Below, piece by piece: positions 300 through 8,247 of a stretch of 8,247 nucleotides of DNA; the stretch's first letter is position 1, and each line of letters opens with the position of its first letter. Both the position numbers and the translations under genes were made by a program. The DNA lies in assembly GCA_048939465.1 (NCBI GenBank), contig JBHLPL010000086.1, positions 1 to 8,247 on the forward strand, in the 5' to 3' direction. A model generated the notes under the pieces. The model saw nothing but the letters and a program-made list of their open reading frames with translations. It did no database searches and had not been told where the DNA came from. Origin of the DNA: Promethearchaeota archaeon. Lineage in GTDB: Archaea; Asgardarchaeota; Odinarchaeia; Odinarchaeales; JBHLKK01.

Positions 300-469
300 G
301 AAAAATTCATCATAGTGTTCTTCACCGCGAAATTATGTTTTCTCAAGGAAGGTCAAAAATAGATGATATAGTACCAAAACCTTGCAAGCTGATAGCTAAA
401 TAGATGGATCTCAGTATCTGCCCCTCGATCAGTCAGTCCTTGGTCGGTCCGTCATCTGCCAGAAGCCCC

Positions 470-571
470 CTACGATCGGGAACCTAAGTAATCCTTTCTT
501 TTGTCAGTCTCCTCAATCACGGACTTAGATCTGATCTTGTGTTTCGCTCGATTGAGTGTTTGAGAATTCAA
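470..571 (-). CDS. Possible 33-aa micro-ORF (MNSQTLNRAKHKIRSKSVIEETDKRKDYLGSRS), TTG start
   Basis: Translated by hand; it is below the ORF-track cutoff. It lies divergent from the 641 ORF across a symmetric TTATAA, and its stop is followed by the same GGGGCTTC seen after the 931..1134 gene. No recognisable homology. Confidence 0.25.
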   Translation of the reverse strand: MNSQTLNRAKHKIRSKSVIEETDKRKDYLGSRS

Positions 572-609
572 CTGCGTCCAGAATTTTCTGGTGGAACGTT
601 TCGAGGTAA

Positions 610-615
610 TTATAA
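610..615. promoter_or_regulatory. Candidate archaeal TATA box (TTATAA), potentially bidirectional
   Basis: The palindromic TTATAA ends 25 nt before ATG 641, typical spacing for a leaderless archaeal transcript, and lies 38 nt from TTG 571 on the other strand. Confidence 0.4.
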
Positions 616-640
616 GAGTTCATCAGAAAGATATAAGATT

Positions 641-817
641 ATGAGGCAGAAGAATCACGATATTCACTATCTTGATCAGGACCTAAGAAGGCGATTTGAT
701 GAGGCCGAGAATGCTCTGGAAAAGAGGAGAAGAAGGTACGAGGAATTGAAACGAAAGTTGGAAGAGTCCCCTGGTGAGTATGAGAGCTTTGGTATACAGG
801 AGATGTTACGTGATTAG
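641..817 (+). CDS. Small charged coiled-coil hypothetical protein, 58 aa (MRQKNHDIHYLDQDLRRRFDEAENALEKRRRRYEELKRKLEESPGEYESFGIQEMLRD)
   Basis: This is the C-terminal part of the tracked ORF 539..817. ATG 641 is preferred because the TATA-like box sits directly upstream and the protein-like helical composition (E/K/R/L) starts here. Confidence 0.6.
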   Translation: MRQKNHDIHYLDQDLRRRFDEAENALEKRRRRYEELKRKLEESPGEYESFGIQEMLRD

Positions 818-826
818 CAAATTCTG

Positions 827-849
827 TTTTTGAGGAATGGTCCCCAAAA
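827..849 (+). terminator. T-tract plus small hairpin downstream of ORF 641..817
   Basis: TTTTGAGGA-ATGG-TCCCCAAAA forms a 9-bp stem with 1 mismatch, about 10 nt after the TAG, and starts within a T5 run. Confidence 0.3.
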
Positions 850-855
850 GCGTAG

Positions 856-901
856 ATTTTTGTATTAAAGGGATTCTCCACCCGGTTTACTAGCTTTTTT
901 T
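856..901 (-). repeat. Dyad element copy A (degenerate, reverse orientation)
   Basis: The minus strand reads AAAAAAA-GCTAGTAAA-N16-TTTAATACA-AAAAT, matching the architecture of copies B-D. Confidence 0.55.
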
Positions 902-930
902 GGGGCTATCCGACTATCCACGAAGCCCCT

Positions 931-1134
931 CTACCTCTCCAGGCTGAAGAGTTTATGAAACACAGAAAAGGAGATCAATGCTGTAACGACAAAAGATACG
1001 ACGTAGACCCTGATCGCCAATCCAGGTACACCCAGTAGAACCAATATTACGAACGGTACAGCCCCGATGGCCGCTGCGTTGACCAGGGAAACAATTAAGA
1101 AGAGCGCTATTTCGAGAATCTGGGTGAGGTTCAT
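931..1134 (-). CDS. Small membrane protein, 67 aa, two predicted TM helices
   Basis: ATG start with GGGGT 6 nt upstream. Two long hydrophobic stretches (ILEIALFLIVSLVNAAAIGAVPFVILVLLGV; VYVVSFVVTALISFSVF) are separated by a PG-containing turn. Confidence 0.65.
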   Translation of the reverse strand: MNLTQILEIALFLIVSLVNAAAIGAVPFVILVLLGVPGLAIRVYVVSFVVTALISFSVFHKLFSLER

Positions 1135-1178
1135 CAGCCGACCCCGTAACGGTTTTTTTTAATCTTGAATCAAATATC

Positions 1179-1514
1179 TTAGGATCCCCGTGGAGAGAAA
1201 GAACCACGGGAAGAATTCGCCGGTAAAGACGCGCATCCTTGGCTTGCTAACTTTTCTCCAGCATGCTGGACAGGGGACGCTCCTGTCGGAACACCGCTTG
1301 CCCCTGGCTCTGTCAGTAAACGAGCTTTCCTTGTCTCCACTAGCTCTTTCCACCTTTCTTGGACCCGGTTCTCCTTTGCAGTCGAGTTGAGAGACCGAGA
1401 AGACAGTCCGACGGCTGACTTCAAGCTCTTGAGGGAGATAACGCCGTAAGGGTCTACAAGTGAAAAAGGATCTCTGCGGAGGACTGGGGCTTCTTTCTCA
1501 TTGGAAATATCCAC
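1179..1514 (-). CDS. Hypothetical protein, 111 aa (GTG start); C-terminal half doubtful
   Basis: Longest ORF in this interval and co-oriented with 931..1134. The first ~68 aa look protein-like (..ENRVQERWKELVETRKARLLTE), whereas the tail is Ser/Gly/Pro-rich low complexity. No family recognised. Confidence 0.4.
   Translation of the reverse strand: MDISNEKEAPVLRRDPFSLVDPYGVISLKSLKSAVGLSSRSLNSTAKENRVQERWKELVETRKARLLTEPGASGVPTGASPVQHAGEKLASQGCASLPANSSRGSFSPRGS
1250..1270. repeat. Palindrome TCCAGCATGCTGGA with ACTTTT(C) flank, copy 1
   Basis: Perfect 14-bp palindrome at 1257-1270. ACTTTTCTCCAGCATGCTGG matches 1861-1879 apart from one extra base. Confidence 0.75.
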
Positions 1515-1635
1515 CCATCAGCTACATAAGCGTTTGTACTGGATGAGTATTCTGAAAGTACTGTCTCCGTACGAAAGACTTAATAATGCATCGTTCGTAG
1601 GGTAACTCTTCGTTTCCTGCGAACGAAAAGGGGGT

Positions 1636-1661
1636 TCACAAAGTCACAAAGGAGATCACAA
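1636..1661 (+). promoter_or_regulatory. Tandem TCACAA(AG) direct repeats and GGAGA ribosome-binding site upstream of the RHH gene
   Basis: TCACAAAG at 1636-1643 and 1644-1651, TCACAA at 1656-1661 and GGAGA at 1651-1655. The repeats are seen directly; the operator role is inferred. Confidence 0.45.
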
Positions 1662-1861
1662 TGCCGAAGAAATACACAACAATCGCGCTGCCATCCAAGA
1701 TGGTCGAATATATCGATGAGCTCGTTAAAGACCCGAAGGTCACCACCTATTTCGGTTACTCATCAAGAGCCGAACTGATCCGCACAGCCGTAGCGAAGCA
1801 TCTCAGGGAGATAGAGGAAAAGACCGAATCTAGTAAAGACAAGGATTTCCGAATTTACTGA
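1661..1861 (+). CDS. Ribbon-helix-helix (CopG/Arc/MetJ, NikR-N-terminal-like) DNA-binding protein, 66 aa
   Basis: N-terminal alternating beta-strand (YTTIALP), helix A (SKMVEYIDELVK), then the G-Y-S-S-R-A-E-L-I-R-x-A-V pattern typical of archaeal RHH proteins. Good SD sequence. No C-terminal metal-binding domain. Confidence 0.88.
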   Translation: MPKKYTTIALPSKMVEYIDELVKDPKVTTYFGYSSRAELIRTAVAKHLREIEEKTESSKDKDFRIY

Positions 1862-1889
1862 CTTTTTCCAGCATGCTGGTGAAAAAAGT
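1861..1889 (+). terminator. Hairpin immediately after RHH stop, containing palindrome CCAGCATGCTGG (copy 2)
   Basis: ACTTTTT-CCAGCATGCTGG-TG-AAAAAAGT: an extended inverted repeat with a T5 run directly after TGA. Its right end overlaps dyad element copy B. Confidence 0.5.
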
Positions 1890-1926
1890 TGGTGAATCAG
1901 GTACTCAAGCGATTTACTAACAAAAT
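1882..1926 (+). repeat. Dyad element copy B
   Basis: AAAAAA-GTTGGTGAA(1888-1896)-N16-TTTACTAAC(1913-1921)-AAAAT. Confidence 0.75.
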
Positions 1927-2034
1927 GCAACATGCAGCACACCCCTTGCAGGACCTAGGCCTGCAATCCCCAAGACCCCACCCAAGATTCAGAGTCTGGC
2001 TCAGAGCTCTATAGGAAATAGGGAGACAGATTAT

Positions 2035-2078
2035 AAAAAAGTTCGTAAAAACACGGAGAGCTCATTTACTAACAAAAT
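2035..2078 (+). repeat. Dyad element copy C
   Basis: AAAAAA-GTTCGTAAA(2041-2049)-N15-TTTACTAAC(2065-2073)-AAAAT. Confidence 0.85.
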
Positions 2079-2384
2079 CAAAGGGACAGTGATGTTCCTG
2101 CAGGCGTATCCCTTACCCTAAGAAGCGTTGAATCTGATTTTTTCATATTGAAGTTAGAAATCGGGACAGACTAGATAATCTAGCGTAGGGATTATTTTGG
2201 GGAAACTGTTGGACTTCTGCCCTATTCTTAAATAATCTCTTGAAAAATCAATTAGATTTTAAAAGCAGGTAATTCGCTTGTCATTACCCTCGAGTTTGAC
2301 TTCATTCAACCTGCTTTCAGAGCTGATAAGGCTAATATGAATTGCAGGTGTTAGCAGACTTCAGGATAATACGGGGGATAACAC

Positions 2385-2459
2385 ATGTTCAAACAAGAGG
2401 AAGAGGAAGAAGAGGAAGACTGGGAAGAAGAGGAAGAGGAAGAAGAGGAAGACTGGTGA
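2385..2459 (+). CDS. Highly acidic micro-protein, 24 aa: MFKQEEEEEEEDWEEEEEEEEEDW
   Basis: Translated by hand. ATG start with GGGGG at 2373-2377, 7 nt upstream. GAA and GAG codons alternate in one frame only, and an internal 33-bp duplication preserves the frame and ends in TGG-TGA. Confidence 0.7.
   Translation: MFKQEEEEEEEDWEEEEEEEEEDW
2391..2456 (+). repeat. 33-bp tandem duplication within the acidic micro-ORF
   Basis: GAGGAAGAGGAAGAAGAGGAAGACTGG is identical at 2397-2423 and 2430-2456. Confidence 0.9.
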
Positions 2460-2505
2460 TCTTCAGGAAGCTTACCAGAAATAAGTAGAAATAGGGGGTA
2501 AAAAG

Positions 2506-2556
2506 GTGAAGAAGGAAAAGAAGGAGAAAAAGAAAAAAGAAAAGGAAAAGCGATAA
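2506..2556 (+). CDS. Highly basic micro-protein, 16 aa: MKKEKKEKKKKEKEKR (GTG start)
   Basis: Translated by hand. GGGGG at 2494-2498 is again 7 nt before the start. The frame reads only Lys/Glu/Arg with mixed AAA/AAG and GAA/GAG codons, and there is an in-frame stop upstream at 2482. Confidence 0.55.
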   Translation: MKKEKKEKKKKEKEKR

Positions 2557-2585
2557 CTAACTAATCAGATAGTAGTTCCCTCTAT

Positions 2586-2607
2586 CTTTCTCTTTTTTGC
2601 TTTTTTG
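2586..2607 (+). terminator. Oligo-T terminator-like tract after the micro-ORF pair
   Basis: CTTTCTCTTTTTTGCTTTTTT contains two T6 runs about 30-50 nt after TAA 2556, consistent with archaeal U-tract termination. Confidence 0.55.
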
Positions 2608-2682
2608 AGGAGCCGTTTACGGAACCTCTAGAAAAGATTACACTCACAATAATACTTCAGCGATTATTTATCTACTAAGAAG

Positions 2683-2723
2683 AAGTTAGTAAAGACGTGC
2701 AGAGTTCATTTACTAACAAAAAT
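2683..2723 (+). repeat. Dyad element copy D (perfect arms)
   Basis: AA-GTTAGTAAA(2685-2693)-N15-TTTACTAAC(2709-2717)-AAAAAT. The arms are exact reverse complements, and 33/39 nt are identical to copy C, including much of the spacer. Confidence 0.85.
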
Positions 2724-2741
2724 GCATTCTTATGTCTCAAT

Positions 2742-2975
2742 TCAAACCTTCTGGTGGAAATCGTCGTTCCTGCATTCAAAGGTATACATTACAAACCCAT
2801 CAAAGGCAAAGAAGTGCATCCTTCTTACATGGTAAATTATCTTTGGATCTGCCATATCCACAAGTTCTAAGAACTGTCTTCTTTTGAATTTTACGCGATA
2901 CGAGCTTGTGTGCATTGCTGCCGCCATTGTCGCCGCCATTGTTGCCGCAACAGCTGCATTTGTTCCTCCAACCAT
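2742..2975 (-). CDS. Hypothetical protein, 77 aa, Ala-rich N-terminus
   Basis: ATG with AGGAG 10 nt upstream (2986-2990). An N-terminal (M/V)AA(T/A) repeat is followed by a compact alpha/beta-like domain (YRVKFKRRQFLELVDMADPKIIYHVRRMHFFAFDGFVMYTF). This resembles uncharacterised small prokaryotic proteins with Ala-rich N-termini (recollection, not searched). Confidence 0.7.
   Translation of the reverse strand: MVGGTNAAVAATMAATMAAAMHTSSYRVKFKRRQFLELVDMADPKIIYHVRRMHFFAFDGFVMYTFECRNDDFHQKV
2913..2948 (-). repeat. 3 x 12-bp in-frame tandem repeat
   Basis: Plus strand CATTGCTGCCGC / CATTGTCGCCGC / CATTGTTGCCGC, encoding AATM-AATM-AAAM. Confidence 0.85.
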
Positions 2976-3056
2976 TTCCCATCAACTCCTAGCAAACGAG
3001 AATAGGATATTCACATTATGGATCGTCTGCTTTTGGCAAGAACTGCAAAATTAGAG

Positions 3057-3155
3057 CTTATAAGGTTGTCTGGGTCCGGTGAAGCCTTCAGAATCCATCA
3101 GCAGACCTTAAATAGGCACGTAAAAAATCACTAGTAGCATTAACTACAATTTAAT
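3057..3155. promoter_or_regulatory. Divergent promoter region with TATA-like boxes
   Basis: CTTATAAG (3057-3064), CTTAAATA (3107-3114) and TTTAAT (3150-3155) lie between divergent starts at 2975 and 3224. The actual boxes used cannot be assigned. Confidence 0.3.
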
Positions 3156-3223
3156 CAGTAAGTTGATGCGCTTTTCTCTTCGGAGTCTCTTCAAAATTAA
3201 GGTGATGGAAGACTGAGCGGAAG

Positions 3224-3970
3224 ATGAAGGATCGTGATGCGCTCCGCCCTCAGATTCGGGTTAGTACAGGTATCGATAATGTAGACAGAATGCTTCGAGG
3301 GGGCTTTGAGTCAGGACTGTTCAACCTGATTTACGGGGGAGCAAATGCGTACATAACCTCATTGTTACTCTCAGTCTCTGTACTTTCTCAGCTTCCAAGA
3401 TCCAATAAAGGTGCAGGAAGCAAAGTCGTTTTTGTTGATGCGCAGAATAGTTTTAACCCCTATGCCGTAAGTTGTATGGCGGCCAGTGCGGGTTTAGATC
3501 CAGAAGAAGTGCTAAAAGGAATATTTGTGTCACGAGCTTTTACAAGCGGACAGGTAGAAGAACTCATCCTTAGGAAGACCGAAGAGGAGATAGACAGGGT
3601 TGGTGCGCAGGTTCTGATAGTTTCAGGACTTACCACCTTGCATCTTATGGATGGTCTTGTAAAACCGAGTCAGGAGACACTTACTAAGCTTGTAGAGATT
3701 TATGGTCAACTTCGTCGTCTTGGCTTCCAGAAGAATCTCGTTGTAATAGCTTCCTCAAGGCTAGCTGAAAATTCTGAGTATAGACCAGCCGGAGGTAGAG
3801 CTTTAGCCCATTATGCTCAAATTCTTTTGCTAGTAAGAAACGGGTTCAAGTTTGTAGAATACGTTTTGATGAAACATCCATCTATTCCTGAACGTAGAAC
3901 GCTAATCTGGAAAGGGCGGCGGAAAAGATACACTCCGACCCTAGATGCGTATTTTCTAAACATGTCATAG
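3224..3970 (+). CDS. RadA/Rad51-fold (RecA family) protein with degenerate ATPase motifs, PolB2-associated
   Basis: RadA-like segments: STGIDNVDRMLRGG, VVFVDAQNSF, IFVSRAF, LIVSGL and PAGGRALAHYA. Walker A reads GGANAYIT (no GKT/S). There is no N-terminal HhH domain. First gene of the polB2 operon. Confidence 0.88.
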   Translation: MKDRDALRPQIRVSTGIDNVDRMLRGGFESGLFNLIYGGANAYITSLLLSVSVLSQLPRSNKGAGSKVVFVDAQNSFNPYAVSCMAASAGLDPEEVLKGIFVSRAFTSGQVEELILRKTEEEIDRVGAQVLIVSGLTTLHLMDGLVKPSQETLTKLVEIYGQLRRLGFQKNLVVIASSRLAENSEYRPAGGRALAHYAQILLLVRNGFKFVEYVLMKHPSIPERRTLIWKGRRKRYTPTLDAYFLNMS

Positions 3971-4002
3971 AATTTGAGCGGGAAAACAGGAGATGTGGGA
4001 CC

Positions 4003-4266
4003 TTGGGTAGGACTGTTCCCAGCTTCAGAATGGTGCTCGAAAAAGAGCTACAAAAGTGGAATGAGTTTCGTAGAGGATTGAGAATCGAGGAGCAAAATGT
4101 TCTGGATGAACTATTAAACTCTGCACGAAAACATGCAGATGCAGGTTCTCTCGTCTGTTCACCCAATGTTTCAGAGATAGTCTTCATGGCTATTCTAACA
4201 GAATTGAAAAAACAGCTCAAAAAGCTTGAGAAAACGGTCGCGGCCCTTGACATCCAGGAGGACTAG
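4003..4266 (+). CDS. Small alpha-helical PolB2-associated conserved protein (arCOG07300-like), 87 aa
   Basis: The N-terminus MGRTVPSFR, plus the W..F...L and ARKHADA motifs, match the small protein I recognise as typically encoded directly upstream of archaeal polB2. TTG start with AGGAG at 3988-3992. The family label is from recall, not from a search. Confidence 0.8.
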   Translation: MGRTVPSFRMVLEKELQKWNEFRRGLRIEEQNVLDELLNSARKHADAGSLVCSPNVSEIVFMAILTELKKQLKKLEKTVAALDIQED

Positions 4267-4268
4267 GG

Positions 4269-6596
4269 TTGAGCACCATCGAAGGTTGGATTATAGATGC
4301 CAACGTCGACAACAGCGCAGATGGAATTTCAATCTGGATTAAGCAGAGATCTGATGGAAAAGTTATAAACTCATCAAGTGACTGGAAACCGTTCTTTTAC
4401 GTCTATCCTAAGAATTCTTGTTGGGATGTTGAAAGGCTGGTTTATGTTATATCTCAACACCCTCATGTGAGTGAAGTTGAAACTGCTGGCAAATATGTAA
4501 ATCTAGGAGATCGTAAGAAAAGGAATGTGATTCGGGTCAAAACCAATGGAGTAAATTCGTTTCAAAGAGTCAGAAAAGATATTGAGAAACTGGGCAGTTT
4601 AGAACTATATAATGTCGATATTCCTTTAGAACAGATGTTTTTCTTTTCAACCCAACTCTTCCCATTCGCCTACGTCTCTTTGACTGCCGACGATAAAGGG
4701 CAGCTTAAGAGCTACAAGCTCCTAGATTCAAGAATGGAAGTGGACTATGAGGTCCCCATACTAAGAAGGCTTGTAATAATACCACAAGGAAAAGAGAAGC
4801 ACGTACTTTCACCCATCAAACCGATGAAACGAATCATCTTGAAGATTGAAAATGGTGATGCATCCGAGGATCATATTATAGAAAATGGATGTGAAAATGA
4901 ACTACTCATGGACTTATCGCAAAGAGTAAGTAGTTTAGATCCCGATGTGATATTAAGCTACGAGGGGGATGCCAAAGTCTTCCCTTACCTTCAAGCCAGA
5001 GTATCTGCAAACCAGCTTGAGAAAGAATTCTCTTTATCAAGGGATGGGGCACCCCTTTACCCGAACAACCATAGGTTCGGAGGGGGAACTTCGTATTTCA
5101 GTTACGGCAGAATGTATTACAAACCATCTTCCAAGCTAATACTTCACGGTAGACTCCACATAGACAAGACCACAGCCTTCCTATTTGAGGAGGGTGGACT
5201 TGACGGTTTGATCGAGGCCTCTAGACTCTCATTAATGCCCATCCAGCAGGCCTCAAGAATGACGGTCGGCCACATGGTTACTTCCATGCAGAACTATCAA
5301 GCTTGGATCGATGATGTGTTAATACCGGCAGTTAAAAGGCGTACTGAAGAATTTAAGACTGGAGTTGAGTTAATTCGACAGGACAGAGGCGGACTCGTTT
5401 TTGAGCCAAAGATGGGTTTTCATGAGGATGTTGCCGAGTGCGATTTCTTTATGATGTATCCGAGCATAATGCACCACTTCAACGTATCCCCAGAAACCGT
5501 GAACTGCAAATGTTGTAAGGGTGTTGGCATCAAGGTTCCTGGAATCGACCTTCATGTTTGCAGGAAACGAACAGGTTTAGTTTCAAAAGTGGTCAAAATA
5601 CTTCTTGAAAAGAGAAGAGCTTACAAGAAGCTCCTGAAGGAGGCGGAAGGCGAGAGAAAAGAGAGATTTATGGGACTTCAAGCGACAGCAAAATGGGGGG
5701 GAGTTGTGAGTTTCGGTTACCTGGGATTTAAGGGTTATCGGTTTGGTAAAATCGATGCGCACATAGCTGTTACAGCTTTTGCCCGAGAAATACTCCTAAA
5801 AAGCTCAGAAATAGCCCAAAAGAATGGCTTCGATGTGATCCATGGAATAGTCGATTCGCTTTGGCTTAAGAAGAAAACCCCAAATGCAAATCTCGAAGAC
5901 TATGAAAAACTGTCTGAAGAAATTTCAAAAGTCACAGGATTACAGTTGAAGTTCAAAGGTATCTATAAGTGGATTGTATTTCTTCACTCAACTACTAATC
6001 CGGATTTAGGCGTCCTTAATCGATATTACGGAGTGTTTAGGAACGGTAAAATAAGAGTGCGCGGTTTGGAAGTTCGGAAACACGATACTCCGCGGCTGAT
6101 CTACGATGCACAGATGGATATGATTAAGGCCCTTTCAGACGCTTCGAATCTTGAGCAATTTGTTAAGGTGATTCCTAAAGCACGACAAATACTTCAAGAT
6201 TACATTAACAGAGTTCGCAAAGGAAACGTAGACCTTGAGGATTTAATCATATGTAGACGCTTATCAAGGGATCCTTCAGAATATACTGTAGTTACAAGAC
6301 AAGCTGCCGCCGCCCAACAACTCAAATCCATAGGGATTAGGCTTCAAGCTGGGCAGAAGGCCAAATTCGTAATCTTGAATTCCAGCGCAAGGAATCCTGC
6401 AAGAAGGGTGCTTGCAGCCGAGTTGTTAGAGCGGGACCCAAATACTCTTTATGATAAAGAAGAGTACACCAAACTGCTACAGAGAGCCTTCGACAACATG
6501 TTTCCGCCATACATACAAGGAATAGACAGGAAGTCACACATTTCAAGGGAAAATCCAGGTCTAAAAGGCTTTCCTGTTAGTCATAGCAATCTATAA
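4269..6596 (+). CDS. polB2: Family B DNA polymerase, archaeal PolB2 (Dpo2-like) clade, 775 aa
   Basis: Motif A variant ECDFFMMYPSIM (D at 5442), motif B variant QATAKWGGVVSFGYLG (5679-5726) and motif C variant HGIVDS (5841-5858; the GIVDS form is characteristic of PolB2). Thumb motif RGLEVRKHD. Exo motifs lack catalytic acidic residues (SYEGDAKVFPYL). TTG start 2 nt after the upstream TAG. Confidence 0.95.
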   Translation: MSTIEGWIIDANVDNSADGISIWIKQRSDGKVINSSSDWKPFFYVYPKNSCWDVERLVYVISQHPHVSEVETAGKYVNLGDRKKRNVIRVKTNGVNSFQRVRKDIEKLGSLELYNVDIPLEQMFFFSTQLFPFAYVSLTADDKGQLKSYKLLDSRMEVDYEVPILRRLVIIPQGKEKHVLSPIKPMKRIILKIENGDASEDHIIENGCENELLMDLSQRVSSLDPDVILSYEGDAKVFPYLQARVSANQLEKEFSLSRDGAPLYPNNHRFGGGTSYFSYGRMYYKPSSKLILHGRLHIDKTTAFLFEEGGLDGLIEASRLSLMPIQQASRMTVGHMVTSMQNYQAWIDDVLIPAVKRRTEEFKTGVELIRQDRGGLVFEPKMGFHEDVAECDFFMMYPSIMHHFNVSPETVNCKCCKGVGIKVPGIDLHVCRKRTGLVSKVVKILLEKRRAYKKLLKEAEGERKERFMGLQATAKWGGVVSFGYLGFKGYRFGKIDAHIAVTAFAREILLKSSEIAQKNGFDVIHGIVDSLWLKKKTPNANLEDYEKLSEEISKVTGLQLKFKGIYKWIVFLHSTTNPDLGVLNRYYGVFRNGKIRVRGLEVRKHDTPRLIYDAQMDMIKALSDASNLEQFVKVIPKARQILQDYINRVRKGNVDLEDLIICRRLSRDPSEYTVVTRQAAAAQQLKSIGIRLQAGQKAKFVILNSSARNPARRVLAAELLERDPNTLYDKEEYTKLLQRAFDNMFPPYIQGIDRKSHISRENPGLKGFPVSHSNL

Positions 6597-7702: not shown

Positions 7703-8247
7703 CTAGTACAGCTCTCCTTTGGCAACCATAATTACCTTGCCACCAACGTATACATTTATTCTTTCTTTATCTTCCTCAGCTCTCAAAAGCAGTAAAGAAG
7801 GTCTCCCTATCTCATACCCCTGTTCAACTCTAATATCAATACTGTCCTTCCCAAAATAACGATGTTTAATCAAGTACCCAGCAAGACAGCCATTTGCACT
7901 CCCCGTGGCGGGATCTTCAGGAATACCGTAGTAGTCTGCAAAGAACCTTACACTCAAATCATTTCCTTTCTTATGAGTTTCTGGGCAAAAGATCAGTATT
8001 GTTTTGGCCTGAATATCGCCAACCAGATCGAACAGCTTGTCTCTGACTGTTCTAGCACGCTTCAATGCATCTAGGCTCTTTAGAGGGACGATGAGAGTGG
8101 GGACTCCTGTAGAGACATCCTGAATCGGAAATCTTTCATCAATATCCTCTGCATCAAGACTCAAGACATTCGAGAGCACTCTCAGATCAAAGGTTCGACC
8201 AAAGATGGGATTTATTTGCTTCATCCACAAAGTCTCAGCGTTCTCAT
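7703..8247 (-). CDS. phzF: PhzF-family (phenazine biosynthesis-like / DAP-epimerase fold) isomerase, C-terminal part (5'-truncated by window edge)
   Basis: Motifs VSTGVPTLIVPL, RFFA...GIPEDPATGSANG.LAGYL and EQGYEIGRPS, ending in VGGKV..VAKG. The frame stays open to the window end (..ENAETLWMKQ), so TTG 8230 is internal. The symbol denotes the family, not proven phenazine synthesis. Confidence 0.95.
   Translation of the reverse strand, partial: ENAETLWMKQINPIFGRTFDLRVLSNVLSLDAEDIDERFPIQDVSTGVPTLIVPLKSLDALKRARTVRDKLFDLVGDIQAKTILIFCPETHKKGNDLSVRFFADYYGIPEDPATGSANGCLAGYLIKHRYFGKDSIDIRVEQGYEIGRPSLLLLRAEEDKERINVYVGGKVIMVAKGELY

Follow-up and report, generated by a model that had tools for sequence, protein, structure and literature searches.

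The window analysed here is the entire 8,247-bp contig C8 of a Promethearchaeota genome assembly (G000; 1.96 Mb in 152 contigs, 43% G+C), and its subject is a family of ~45-bp inverted repeats, or dyads, that cluster in a mobile-element-like insertion of 2,152 bp (597..2748). To the left of the insertion lies the C-terminus of a CorA protein (3-299). To its right are genes for a RadB-like ATPase (3224-3970), a small DUF8156 protein, a family-B DNA polymerase (PolB; 4269-6596) and, on the minus strand, PhzF (7703-8245), with DUF8156 standing between the RadB-like gene and PolB. The insertion holds the seven dyads of the window, two small open reading frames (ORFs), a pair of micro-ORFs and, near its centre on the plus strand, a gene for a 66-aa ribbon-helix-helix (RHH) protein of the CopG/NikR-N type (1661..1861; Pfam RHH_1, 8.8e-6). 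Rfam and tRNA scans of the window returned nothing relevant.

The insertion and its split host gene

An 11-bp direct repeat (TTCTGGTGGAA) flanks the insertion at 586..596 and 2749..2759. Three related contigs that are 84–88% identical to the window, two from metagenome-assembled genomes at NCBI (L075 and L077) and one from ENA (L080), align to positions 1-596 and from 2749 onward, and the two alignments overlap by exactly these 11 bases. All three keep the order CorA, 86-aa gene, RadB-like, DUF8156 and PolB without the insertion. The same joint, from 585 to 2749 with 11 shared letters, was found in X2 and X7, two metagenome runs from different studies among the four public runs whose contigs were compared. 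Because the three related contigs carry an empty site with the 11-mer only once, we take 597-2748 to be an insertion with an 11-bp target duplication; it shows both marks of an integrated element, namely a target direct repeat at both ends and an empty site in relatives.

When the left terminus (597..623, plus strand) is compared with the reverse complement of the right terminus (2722..2748, minus strand), anchored at the ends, 16 of 27 positions are identical where ~7.6 are expected, which is suggestive only of an imperfect terminal inverted repeat (TIR). No second copy of the insertion ends was found in the genome. Apart from the RHH gene, the ORFs of the insertion are without paralogues, and its G+C content is that of the flanks. 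A diverged version of its inner part is present in another sample (contig L066), 79% identical over 1115-1839. A virus or plasmid origin of the island genes was considered and rejected, as no relatives were found in IMG/VR or the phage collection; PHROG gave generic RHH matches only.

The insertion interrupts a small host gene on the minus strand. What remains at 2742..2975 encodes 77 aa and ends in ...FHQKV, the last ~10–19 residues having been swapped for a V-stop. The lost tail (ILDAVEFSNTQSSE...) is encoded 2.1 kb away, in an orphaned 3' end at 525..596 (FHQK-ILDAVEFSNTQSSETQDQI-stop) that is in frame with 2760-2975 once the insertion is removed. Removal of 597-2759 restores a 96-aa open frame whose tail matches the C-terminus of the family, including proteins P0019 and P0020. 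This very conserved archaeal family has more than 700 homologues (P0019-P0136 among them), typically of 83–88 aa and ending in ...DFxQK(I/V)LxAIEFSNxxWSE; these are ~70–88% identical and come from Bathyarchaeia, Thor-, Hermod-, Hod- and Promethearchaeota. The family belongs to no Pfam family and gives only a faint match to DUF7505. Because the genome has no second copy of the host gene, the insertion may have crippled its only one.

Members, distribution and behaviour of the dyad family

Each module consists of an A-tract, the half-site GYYAGYAAA, 15–16 bp, the inverted half-site and A3-5. The best window copies are B (1888..1921, arms GTTGGTGAA / TTTACTAAC, spacer 16), C (2041..2073, arms GTTCGTAAA / TTTACTAAC, spacer 15) and D (2685..2717, perfect arms GTTAGTAAA / TTTACTAAC, spacer 15), all on the plus strand. 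Copy D starts 31 nt inside the right end of the insertion, 24 nt beyond the stop codon of the truncated host gene, which runs on the opposite strand. An earlier note on this DNA had described four copies. Its account is accurate for B, C and D, which have 9-bp inverted arms, spacers of 16, 15 and 15 bp, an A-run on the left and AAAAT or AAAAA on the right, and the right arm is invariant among them.

The fourth, copy A (861..894, minus strand, arms GCTAGTAAA / TTTAATACA, spacer 16), is weak. It lies between the convergent ORFs 641-817 (+) and 931-1134 (-), and it matches in 6/9 positions of the right arm and 8/9 of the left. With a position weight matrix (PWM) it scores 25.7 bits, compared with 38–44 bits for the good copies and a maximum of 23.5 in the reversed-genome control; its 41 bits with a covariance model (CM) come from a model in whose training set copy A is itself a member. 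The count of four was also too low. Scans with the PWM and CM recovered the degenerate copies E (1219..1251, minus strand, arms GTTAGCAAG / TTTACCGGC, spacer 15) and F (1312..1344, minus strand, arms GCTAGTGGA / TTTACTGAC, spacer 15), and a further degenerate copy, G (1829..1862, plus strand, arms TCTAGTAAA / TTTACTGAC, spacer 16, followed by T5), scores 34 bits with the CM on the plus strand versus 20 on the minus. Copy G overlaps the final codons and stop of the RHH gene, and the statement that all copies are intergenic is not strictly true. Two good copies lie outside the window, at C10:25859-25892 and C61:17563-17595. The same scans confirm that there is no copy in the 3.2–8.2 kb part of the window, and the exact dyad pattern had 0 matches in 200 shuffles.

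A GC palindrome (CCAGCATGCTGG) at 1257..1268 separates F from E, and a second copy at 1868..1879, flanked by T5 and A6, separates G from B; in L066 the former keeps a 5-bp stem with an altered and longer centre. The segment F-palindrome-E on the minus strand mirrors G-palindrome-B on the plus strand, forming an inverted duplication. All seven point outward: the left half of the insertion has A, E and F on the minus strand, whereas the right half has G, B, C and D on the plus strand. Because the inverted duplication leaves only ~5 independent events, this pattern is only marginally significant. Spacer length is constant at 15–16 bp across all 11 aligned copies, and since the spacers are of two subfamilies (one shared by C, D, C61 and copy F' of L066, the other by B and C10), we read the copies as sharing ancestry and not as convergent sites.

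The family is rare. A 13-mer made up of the right arm and AAAA occurs three times in the 1.96-Mb genome, always in the window, where ~0.2 occurrences are expected. Run over the genome, the covariance model (R2, built from 11 copies) recovers no more than the nine known copies, at 34–55 bits, the next match being at 17–20 bits; seven of the nine fall within 1.9 kb. In 40 relatives, including two of the same genus, the model gave nothing better than E=0.05, and searches with exact and 3-mismatch patterns gave nothing relevant. Pattern scans of 596 Gb of genomes, IMG/VR and JGI metagenomes returned chance matches only, in unrelated AT-rich DNA or in coding sequence. Dyads are likewise absent at the locus of the RHH paralogue (on C19) and at its same-genus orthologues, as well as at the RadB-like/PolB loci of relatives. 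The repeat family is real, rare and confined to one lineage. With so few copies, and none in the 40 relatives, the suggestion of a REP-like 3'-end element (REP, repetitive extragenic palindromic) finds no support genome-wide.

Both off-window copies have neighbours of interest. The C61 copy sits in ~700 bp that are absent from the same-genus genome G001, and the C10 copy adjoins a dispersed 310-nt repeat. This ~310-nt family (C10:25343-25656) has copies on C144, C62, C138, C139, C146, C77 and C69 and in G002. A separate ~285-nt family (C61:18117-18399) has more than 20 copies in the genome and is present in both same-genus genomes. Both families are probably miniature inverted-repeat transposable elements (MITEs) or non-coding RNA genes. 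In addition, the right half of the C10 dyad and its flank (C10:25851-25870) share an exact 20-nt match with C88:6349-6368, where it encodes the conserved FDLFVND motif of a phosphoglycerate-kinase-like gene; the match is far too long for chance.

The homology between copies is limited to the unit. Between C and D identity is 83% over 42 nt, and between B and C10 it is 79% over 43 nt; in both pairs homology stops at the unit edges and the flanks are unrelated. Neutral decay of longer duplicated segments cannot, on our reading of these alignments, yield unit-only homology. Homology of C extends 25 nt further right with C61 and 45 nt further with the L066 copy F'. Copy C10 is a mosaic in which the left half of C is joined to a spacer of the B type; 450 bp from it there is a solo left half. 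Identity to the L066 counterpart is 79% for E and 67% for F; because this is no better than the non-coding background of ~75–79%, these old copies do not appear to be under selection.

Lineages start to differ at dyad edges. Homology between the window and L066 ends inside the first arm of G, at ~1839. Further breakpoints were seen in the public runs, in short Logan contigs aligned at at least 85%: the alignment of one X4 contig begins at 1882 (the start of B), one X2 contig diverges left of 2035 (the start of C), and one X2 contig leaves D after 2690 into a dyad with a different spacer. In one X3 contig, 1890-1934 (copy B) is replaced by 6 nt. One X7 contig joins 1023 to 1981 with 10 filler bases and is without 1024-1980. 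This X7 variant keeps C and has lost the RHH gene, four dyads (E, F, G and B) and part of a 67-aa ORF.

Recognition of the dyads and rival readings

Is the dyad kept as an RNA hairpin or as a DNA sequence? In the 11-copy alignment 84.8% of cells pair, with 0 double changes, and 443/500 column shuffles pair as well. Pairing is 85% on the strand on which the dyads are read and 80% on the T-rich strand, and only 70% of pairs are Watson-Crick. Fold energies range from -1.5 to -11.4 kcal/mol, with z above -2 in 14/18 folds. The 22 pooled half-sites yield GYYAGYAAA, in which G1, G5 and A7-9 are nearly fixed, and half-site substitutions are mostly transitions. Because this consensus holds without compensatory changes, the arms seem to be kept as sequence and not as helix, which points to recognition of double-stranded DNA, or simply to common descent. 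The module is not an RNA structure.

Nor does it score as a core promoter. The tRNA promoters of the genome read RAAAAG-YTTAAAWA, and the A-run and left arm of the dyad share only the B recognition element (BRE) part. Scored with a BRE/TATA matrix built from 14 tRNA promoters, the A-run with left arm reaches ≤3.2 bits and the T-run side ≤1.5 bits, and the core-promoter reading was rejected. Matches to the matrix lie at 626, 946, 1088 and 1573 on the plus strand and at 2605 on the minus strand, none of them at a dyad, in line with the earlier note, which had placed three copies outside promoter positions. A leftward promoter was also considered at C10, where T6AT stands by two left-half copies, 51 nt before an ATG with a Shine-Dalgarno sequence; the arrangement is not general to other copies and was set aside. 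A scan of 300-3300 for bacterial-type terminators gave 0 sites. The features of a hairpin terminator are missing as well, the stems being weak with 0 compensatory pairs, and T-runs accompany only A, G, B, C and C10.

Taken together, we tentatively favour, with a confidence somewhat short of even, the reading that the dyads are a discrete repeat module of the mobile insertion that is recognised by protein at the DNA level and has been copied and recombined. The modules would belong to accessory DNA, given that seven lie inside the insertion and the C61 copy in DNA absent from a same-genus genome. They would be recognised and copied as DNA, not as an RNA hairpin, and behave as a recombination-prone, copy-and-paste repeat of a mobile element, MITE- or REP-like in behaviour and low in copy number. 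The inverted half-sites would presumably be bound by a dimeric protein acting in trans, and this recognition would drive copying or recombination. Copies E and F, and probably A and G, would be decaying fossils. We propose copy-and-paste because units are shared without their flanks, copies are mosaic or halved, and lineage differences start at unit edges.

Several points weigh against this copy-and-paste module. Seven of only nine copies within 1.9 kb would be unusual for transposition, and part of the cluster is explained by a single inverted segmental duplication, the one that relates F-palindrome-E to G-palindrome-B. There is no recombinase or transposase gene in the insertion or the contig. 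A relation to IS200/IS605 was examined and rejected, as the one PF01797 gene of the genome (on C105, with TnpB) has GC-rich end hairpins unrelated to the dyad. A clean empty site was seen for none of the single dyads; the X3 variant without B also differs in adjacent bases. The breakpoints in the short contigs may mark only where divergent alleles become alignable. Finally, the arms are more alike than the spacers among paralogues, a comparison biased by the fact that copies were found by their arms and not used here as evidence.

The RHH gene encodes one candidate for a binding protein. Its product gives weak matches to CdrS and to the N-terminus of NikR, of which only the N-terminal 40–50 residues match. 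It has a paralogue on C19 (48% identical) and a homologue in L066 (88% identical), downstream of which lie an A-like dyad and another gene of the 67-aa type. The promoter matrix recovers the RHH promoter at 1573, and there is no dyad in the promoter region 1500-1660. Upstream of the promoter, a non-coding block at 1505-1556 is 93–97% identical to L066, with the surrounding non-coding sequence at ~75%, and contains an imperfect 13-bp inverted repeat with an 8-bp gap. This block could be the RHH protein's own operator, or a small RNA or promoter; the best candidate for that operator would accordingly lie outside the dyads.

Could the dyads nevertheless be operator or iteron sites for this RHH protein, with two dimers (or a dimer of dimers) on half-sites 24–25 bp apart repressing or organising transcription within the insertion? 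We hold this to be plausible but unlikely. The central position of the RHH gene, the constant spacing in the 11 aligned copies, half-sites kept without covariation as protein sites would be, a near-palindrome TTA(G/C)TAA in each arm and an A-tract by the left arm that matches the BRE part (AAAAG) of the tRNA promoters would all suit it, and the regulators SvtR, AvtR and F55 bind several sites per genome (PMC5569661). Against it, the arms score no higher than 3.2 bits with the promoter matrix in either direction, most copies follow stop codons, the conserved block at the RHH promoter differs in sequence from the dyads, and conservation between lineages is lacking for E and F. No RHH gene is near the C10 or C61 copy, and the 66-aa protein is without a NikR-type tetramerisation domain. 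The operator array put forward in the earlier note is thus left standing with nothing specific in its favour: the sites are not in promoter positions, the RHH promoter has no copy, and the X7 contig that has lost the RHH gene together with E, F, G and B still keeps C. The positions after stop codons might instead suggest polar transcription stops, which we consider rather unlikely. The T-rich strand reads T4-5, dyad, T5-7 and would end transcripts of the small genes and those running in from the host. On that strand the distance from the preceding stop codon is 43 nt for A (ORF 641-817) and 24 nt for D (truncated host gene), C61 comes 26 nt after a zinc-ribbon ORF, and G overlaps the RHH stop and is followed by T5. 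Archaeal transcription can terminate at oligo-T, and the tRNA genes of the genome are trailed by T4-5 runs. The T-tracts may thus have a termination role, but they alone would suffice and leave the conserved arms unexplained. The hairpins of the T-rich strand are weak (-1.5 to -7.7 kcal/mol, with z exceeding -2 in every copy except D), covariation is absent and pairing is poorer than on the other strand, a 15–16-nt loop with an AU stem fits poorly, and B, C, E and F have no upstream ORF on the right strand.

A more far-reaching proposal, which we regard as improbable, is that the insert is the first member to be seen of a recombinase-less Asgard mobile element and that the dyads are joints at which segments with small genes, micro-ORFs or small RNAs are exchanged by a trans-acting enzyme, both among copies of the element and with other accessory loci; if true, this would be a miniature cassette-shuffling system unrelated to integron attC sites. 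The related suggestion in the earlier note, that the dyads are recombination sites delimiting cassettes, comes closest to the evidence as far as the insertion with its 11-bp target duplication and the differences at dyad edges are concerned, and departs from it in that the sites are not of the attC type and no recombinase is linked. The dyads may be functionless relics of one ancestral regulatory or terminator sequence that was multiplied by segmental duplications in a decaying insertion. The inverted duplication, the 45 nt of flank shared by C and the L066 copy F', the evolution of E and F at or below background identity and the preponderance of transitions in the half-sites all agree with such relics, yet C/D and B/C10 share the unit only (~80%) with unrelated flanks, and copies lie on three unlinked contigs; the chance that relics are the whole explanation appears slim. 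Least probable of all, and rejected here, are attC sites of an integrase-less cassette cluster (CALIN). Integrons, mostly CALINs, have been reported as enriched in Asgard archaea (PMC9668308), the arms start with GTT and end with AAC, and the region has small ORFs and varies between strains. Judged by inspection, however, the core-site order is reversed (GTT...AAC versus RYYYAAC...GTTRRRY), the core of 33–34 bp is shorter than known attC sites and without bulged bases, orientation switches mid-array between F and G, several 'cassettes' are without an ORF, and the observed breakpoints are not at G|TT. No integrase is encoded on the contig; two tyrosine recombinase genes lie elsewhere (C43 and C80) and are not typed as IntI.

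Other features were noted in the genome and window. A complete IS200/IS605 element with TnpA and TnpB lies at C105:1000-2850, and GC-rich hairpins of the same type (...CCATCCGAAAGGGTGGAG...) are scattered over at least eight contigs; these are likely element ends or guide-RNA regions. The motif GGGTGGAG in the spacer of A was considered as a link to IS200/IS605 and dismissed as a common 8-mer with 74 occurrences. A role as replication origin (origin recognition boxes) was rejected, since the Orc1/Cdc6 genes on C139, C15 and C116 have no nearby dyad and the region is absent from relatives. The sequence TAACTAACTAA at 2554-2564, which follows the second micro-ORF directly and precedes a double T6 tract, closes all three frames with stop codons. 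The RadB-like/DUF8156/PolB operon (3224-6596) is the third PolB locus of the genome. It is without a close counterpart in the two same-genus genomes searched, and its gene order is kept in other relatives at 70–93% amino-acid identity (loci L045-L049 and L075-L078).

Significance and comparison with known systems

Little is known of mobile DNA in Asgard archaea. The insertion described here is polymorphic, has a clean 11-bp target duplication and either inactivates or shortens a small protein that several archaeal phyla conserve. It also brings a repeat family of its own, together with micro-ORFs and a regulator-like RHH gene. Should the dyads prove to be recombination joints or enzyme recognition sites, they would represent a new kind of small mobile system among the prokaryotes most closely related to eukaryotes; as mere operators or fossils, they would leave the locus an ordinary accessory island. 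Either way a false lead is removed, as the dyad is neither a genome-wide REP-like element nor an RNA structure.

Among known systems, SvtR of SIRV1, AvtR of AFV6 and F55 of SSV1 are small RHH regulators of archaeal viruses with multi-site operators (PMC5569661). The present locus resembles these in having an RHH protein of ~6–7 kDa on a mobile element, with several imperfect repeat sites across the element. The viral sites, however, lie in or by promoters (at the BRE, the TATA box or the transcription start), including that of the regulator itself, whereas most dyads come after stop codons, none lies in the RHH promoter, and their binding by the RHH protein would be hypothetical. The NikR operator has two 6-bp half-sites 16 bp apart, and NikR bridges the gap through its C-terminal tetramerisation domain. 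The dyads likewise have inverted half-sites, 15–16 bp apart; the 66-aa protein, unlike NikR, comprises the RHH fold only.

With integron attC sites and CALINs (PMC9668308), the dyads share imperfect inverted repeats that punctuate small ORFs in variable Asgard DNA, and lack the attC core-site order, length (about 55–140 bp), bulged bases and uniform orientation. REP elements, REPINs and MITEs resemble the dyads in that a short palindromic unit is copied as a module and sits in extragenic 3' positions by A/T-tracts, with copies of differing age. Unlike these, the dyads have only nine copies by CM and PWM, where REPs and REPINs have tens to hundreds of extragenic copies genome-wide, and they are found in one lineage and mostly in one 2-kb insert. 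REPs and REPINs also have a cognate Y1 transposase with matching hairpins; in this genome no RAYT or matching transposase was found, and the hairpins on C105 are unrelated. The spacer of 15–16 bp does not form a tight hairpin, and there is no clean target duplication or empty site for a single unit.

For the insert as a whole, the comparison is with non-autonomous DNA transposons. It differs from these in being single-copy in the genome, in having a possible TIR of only 16/27 and in belonging to no family that could be assigned, and its 11-bp repeat might just as well represent a site-specific integration core. Like them, it combines an 11-bp target-site duplication and an empty site with the lack of a transposase of its own and, possibly, imperfect TIRs.

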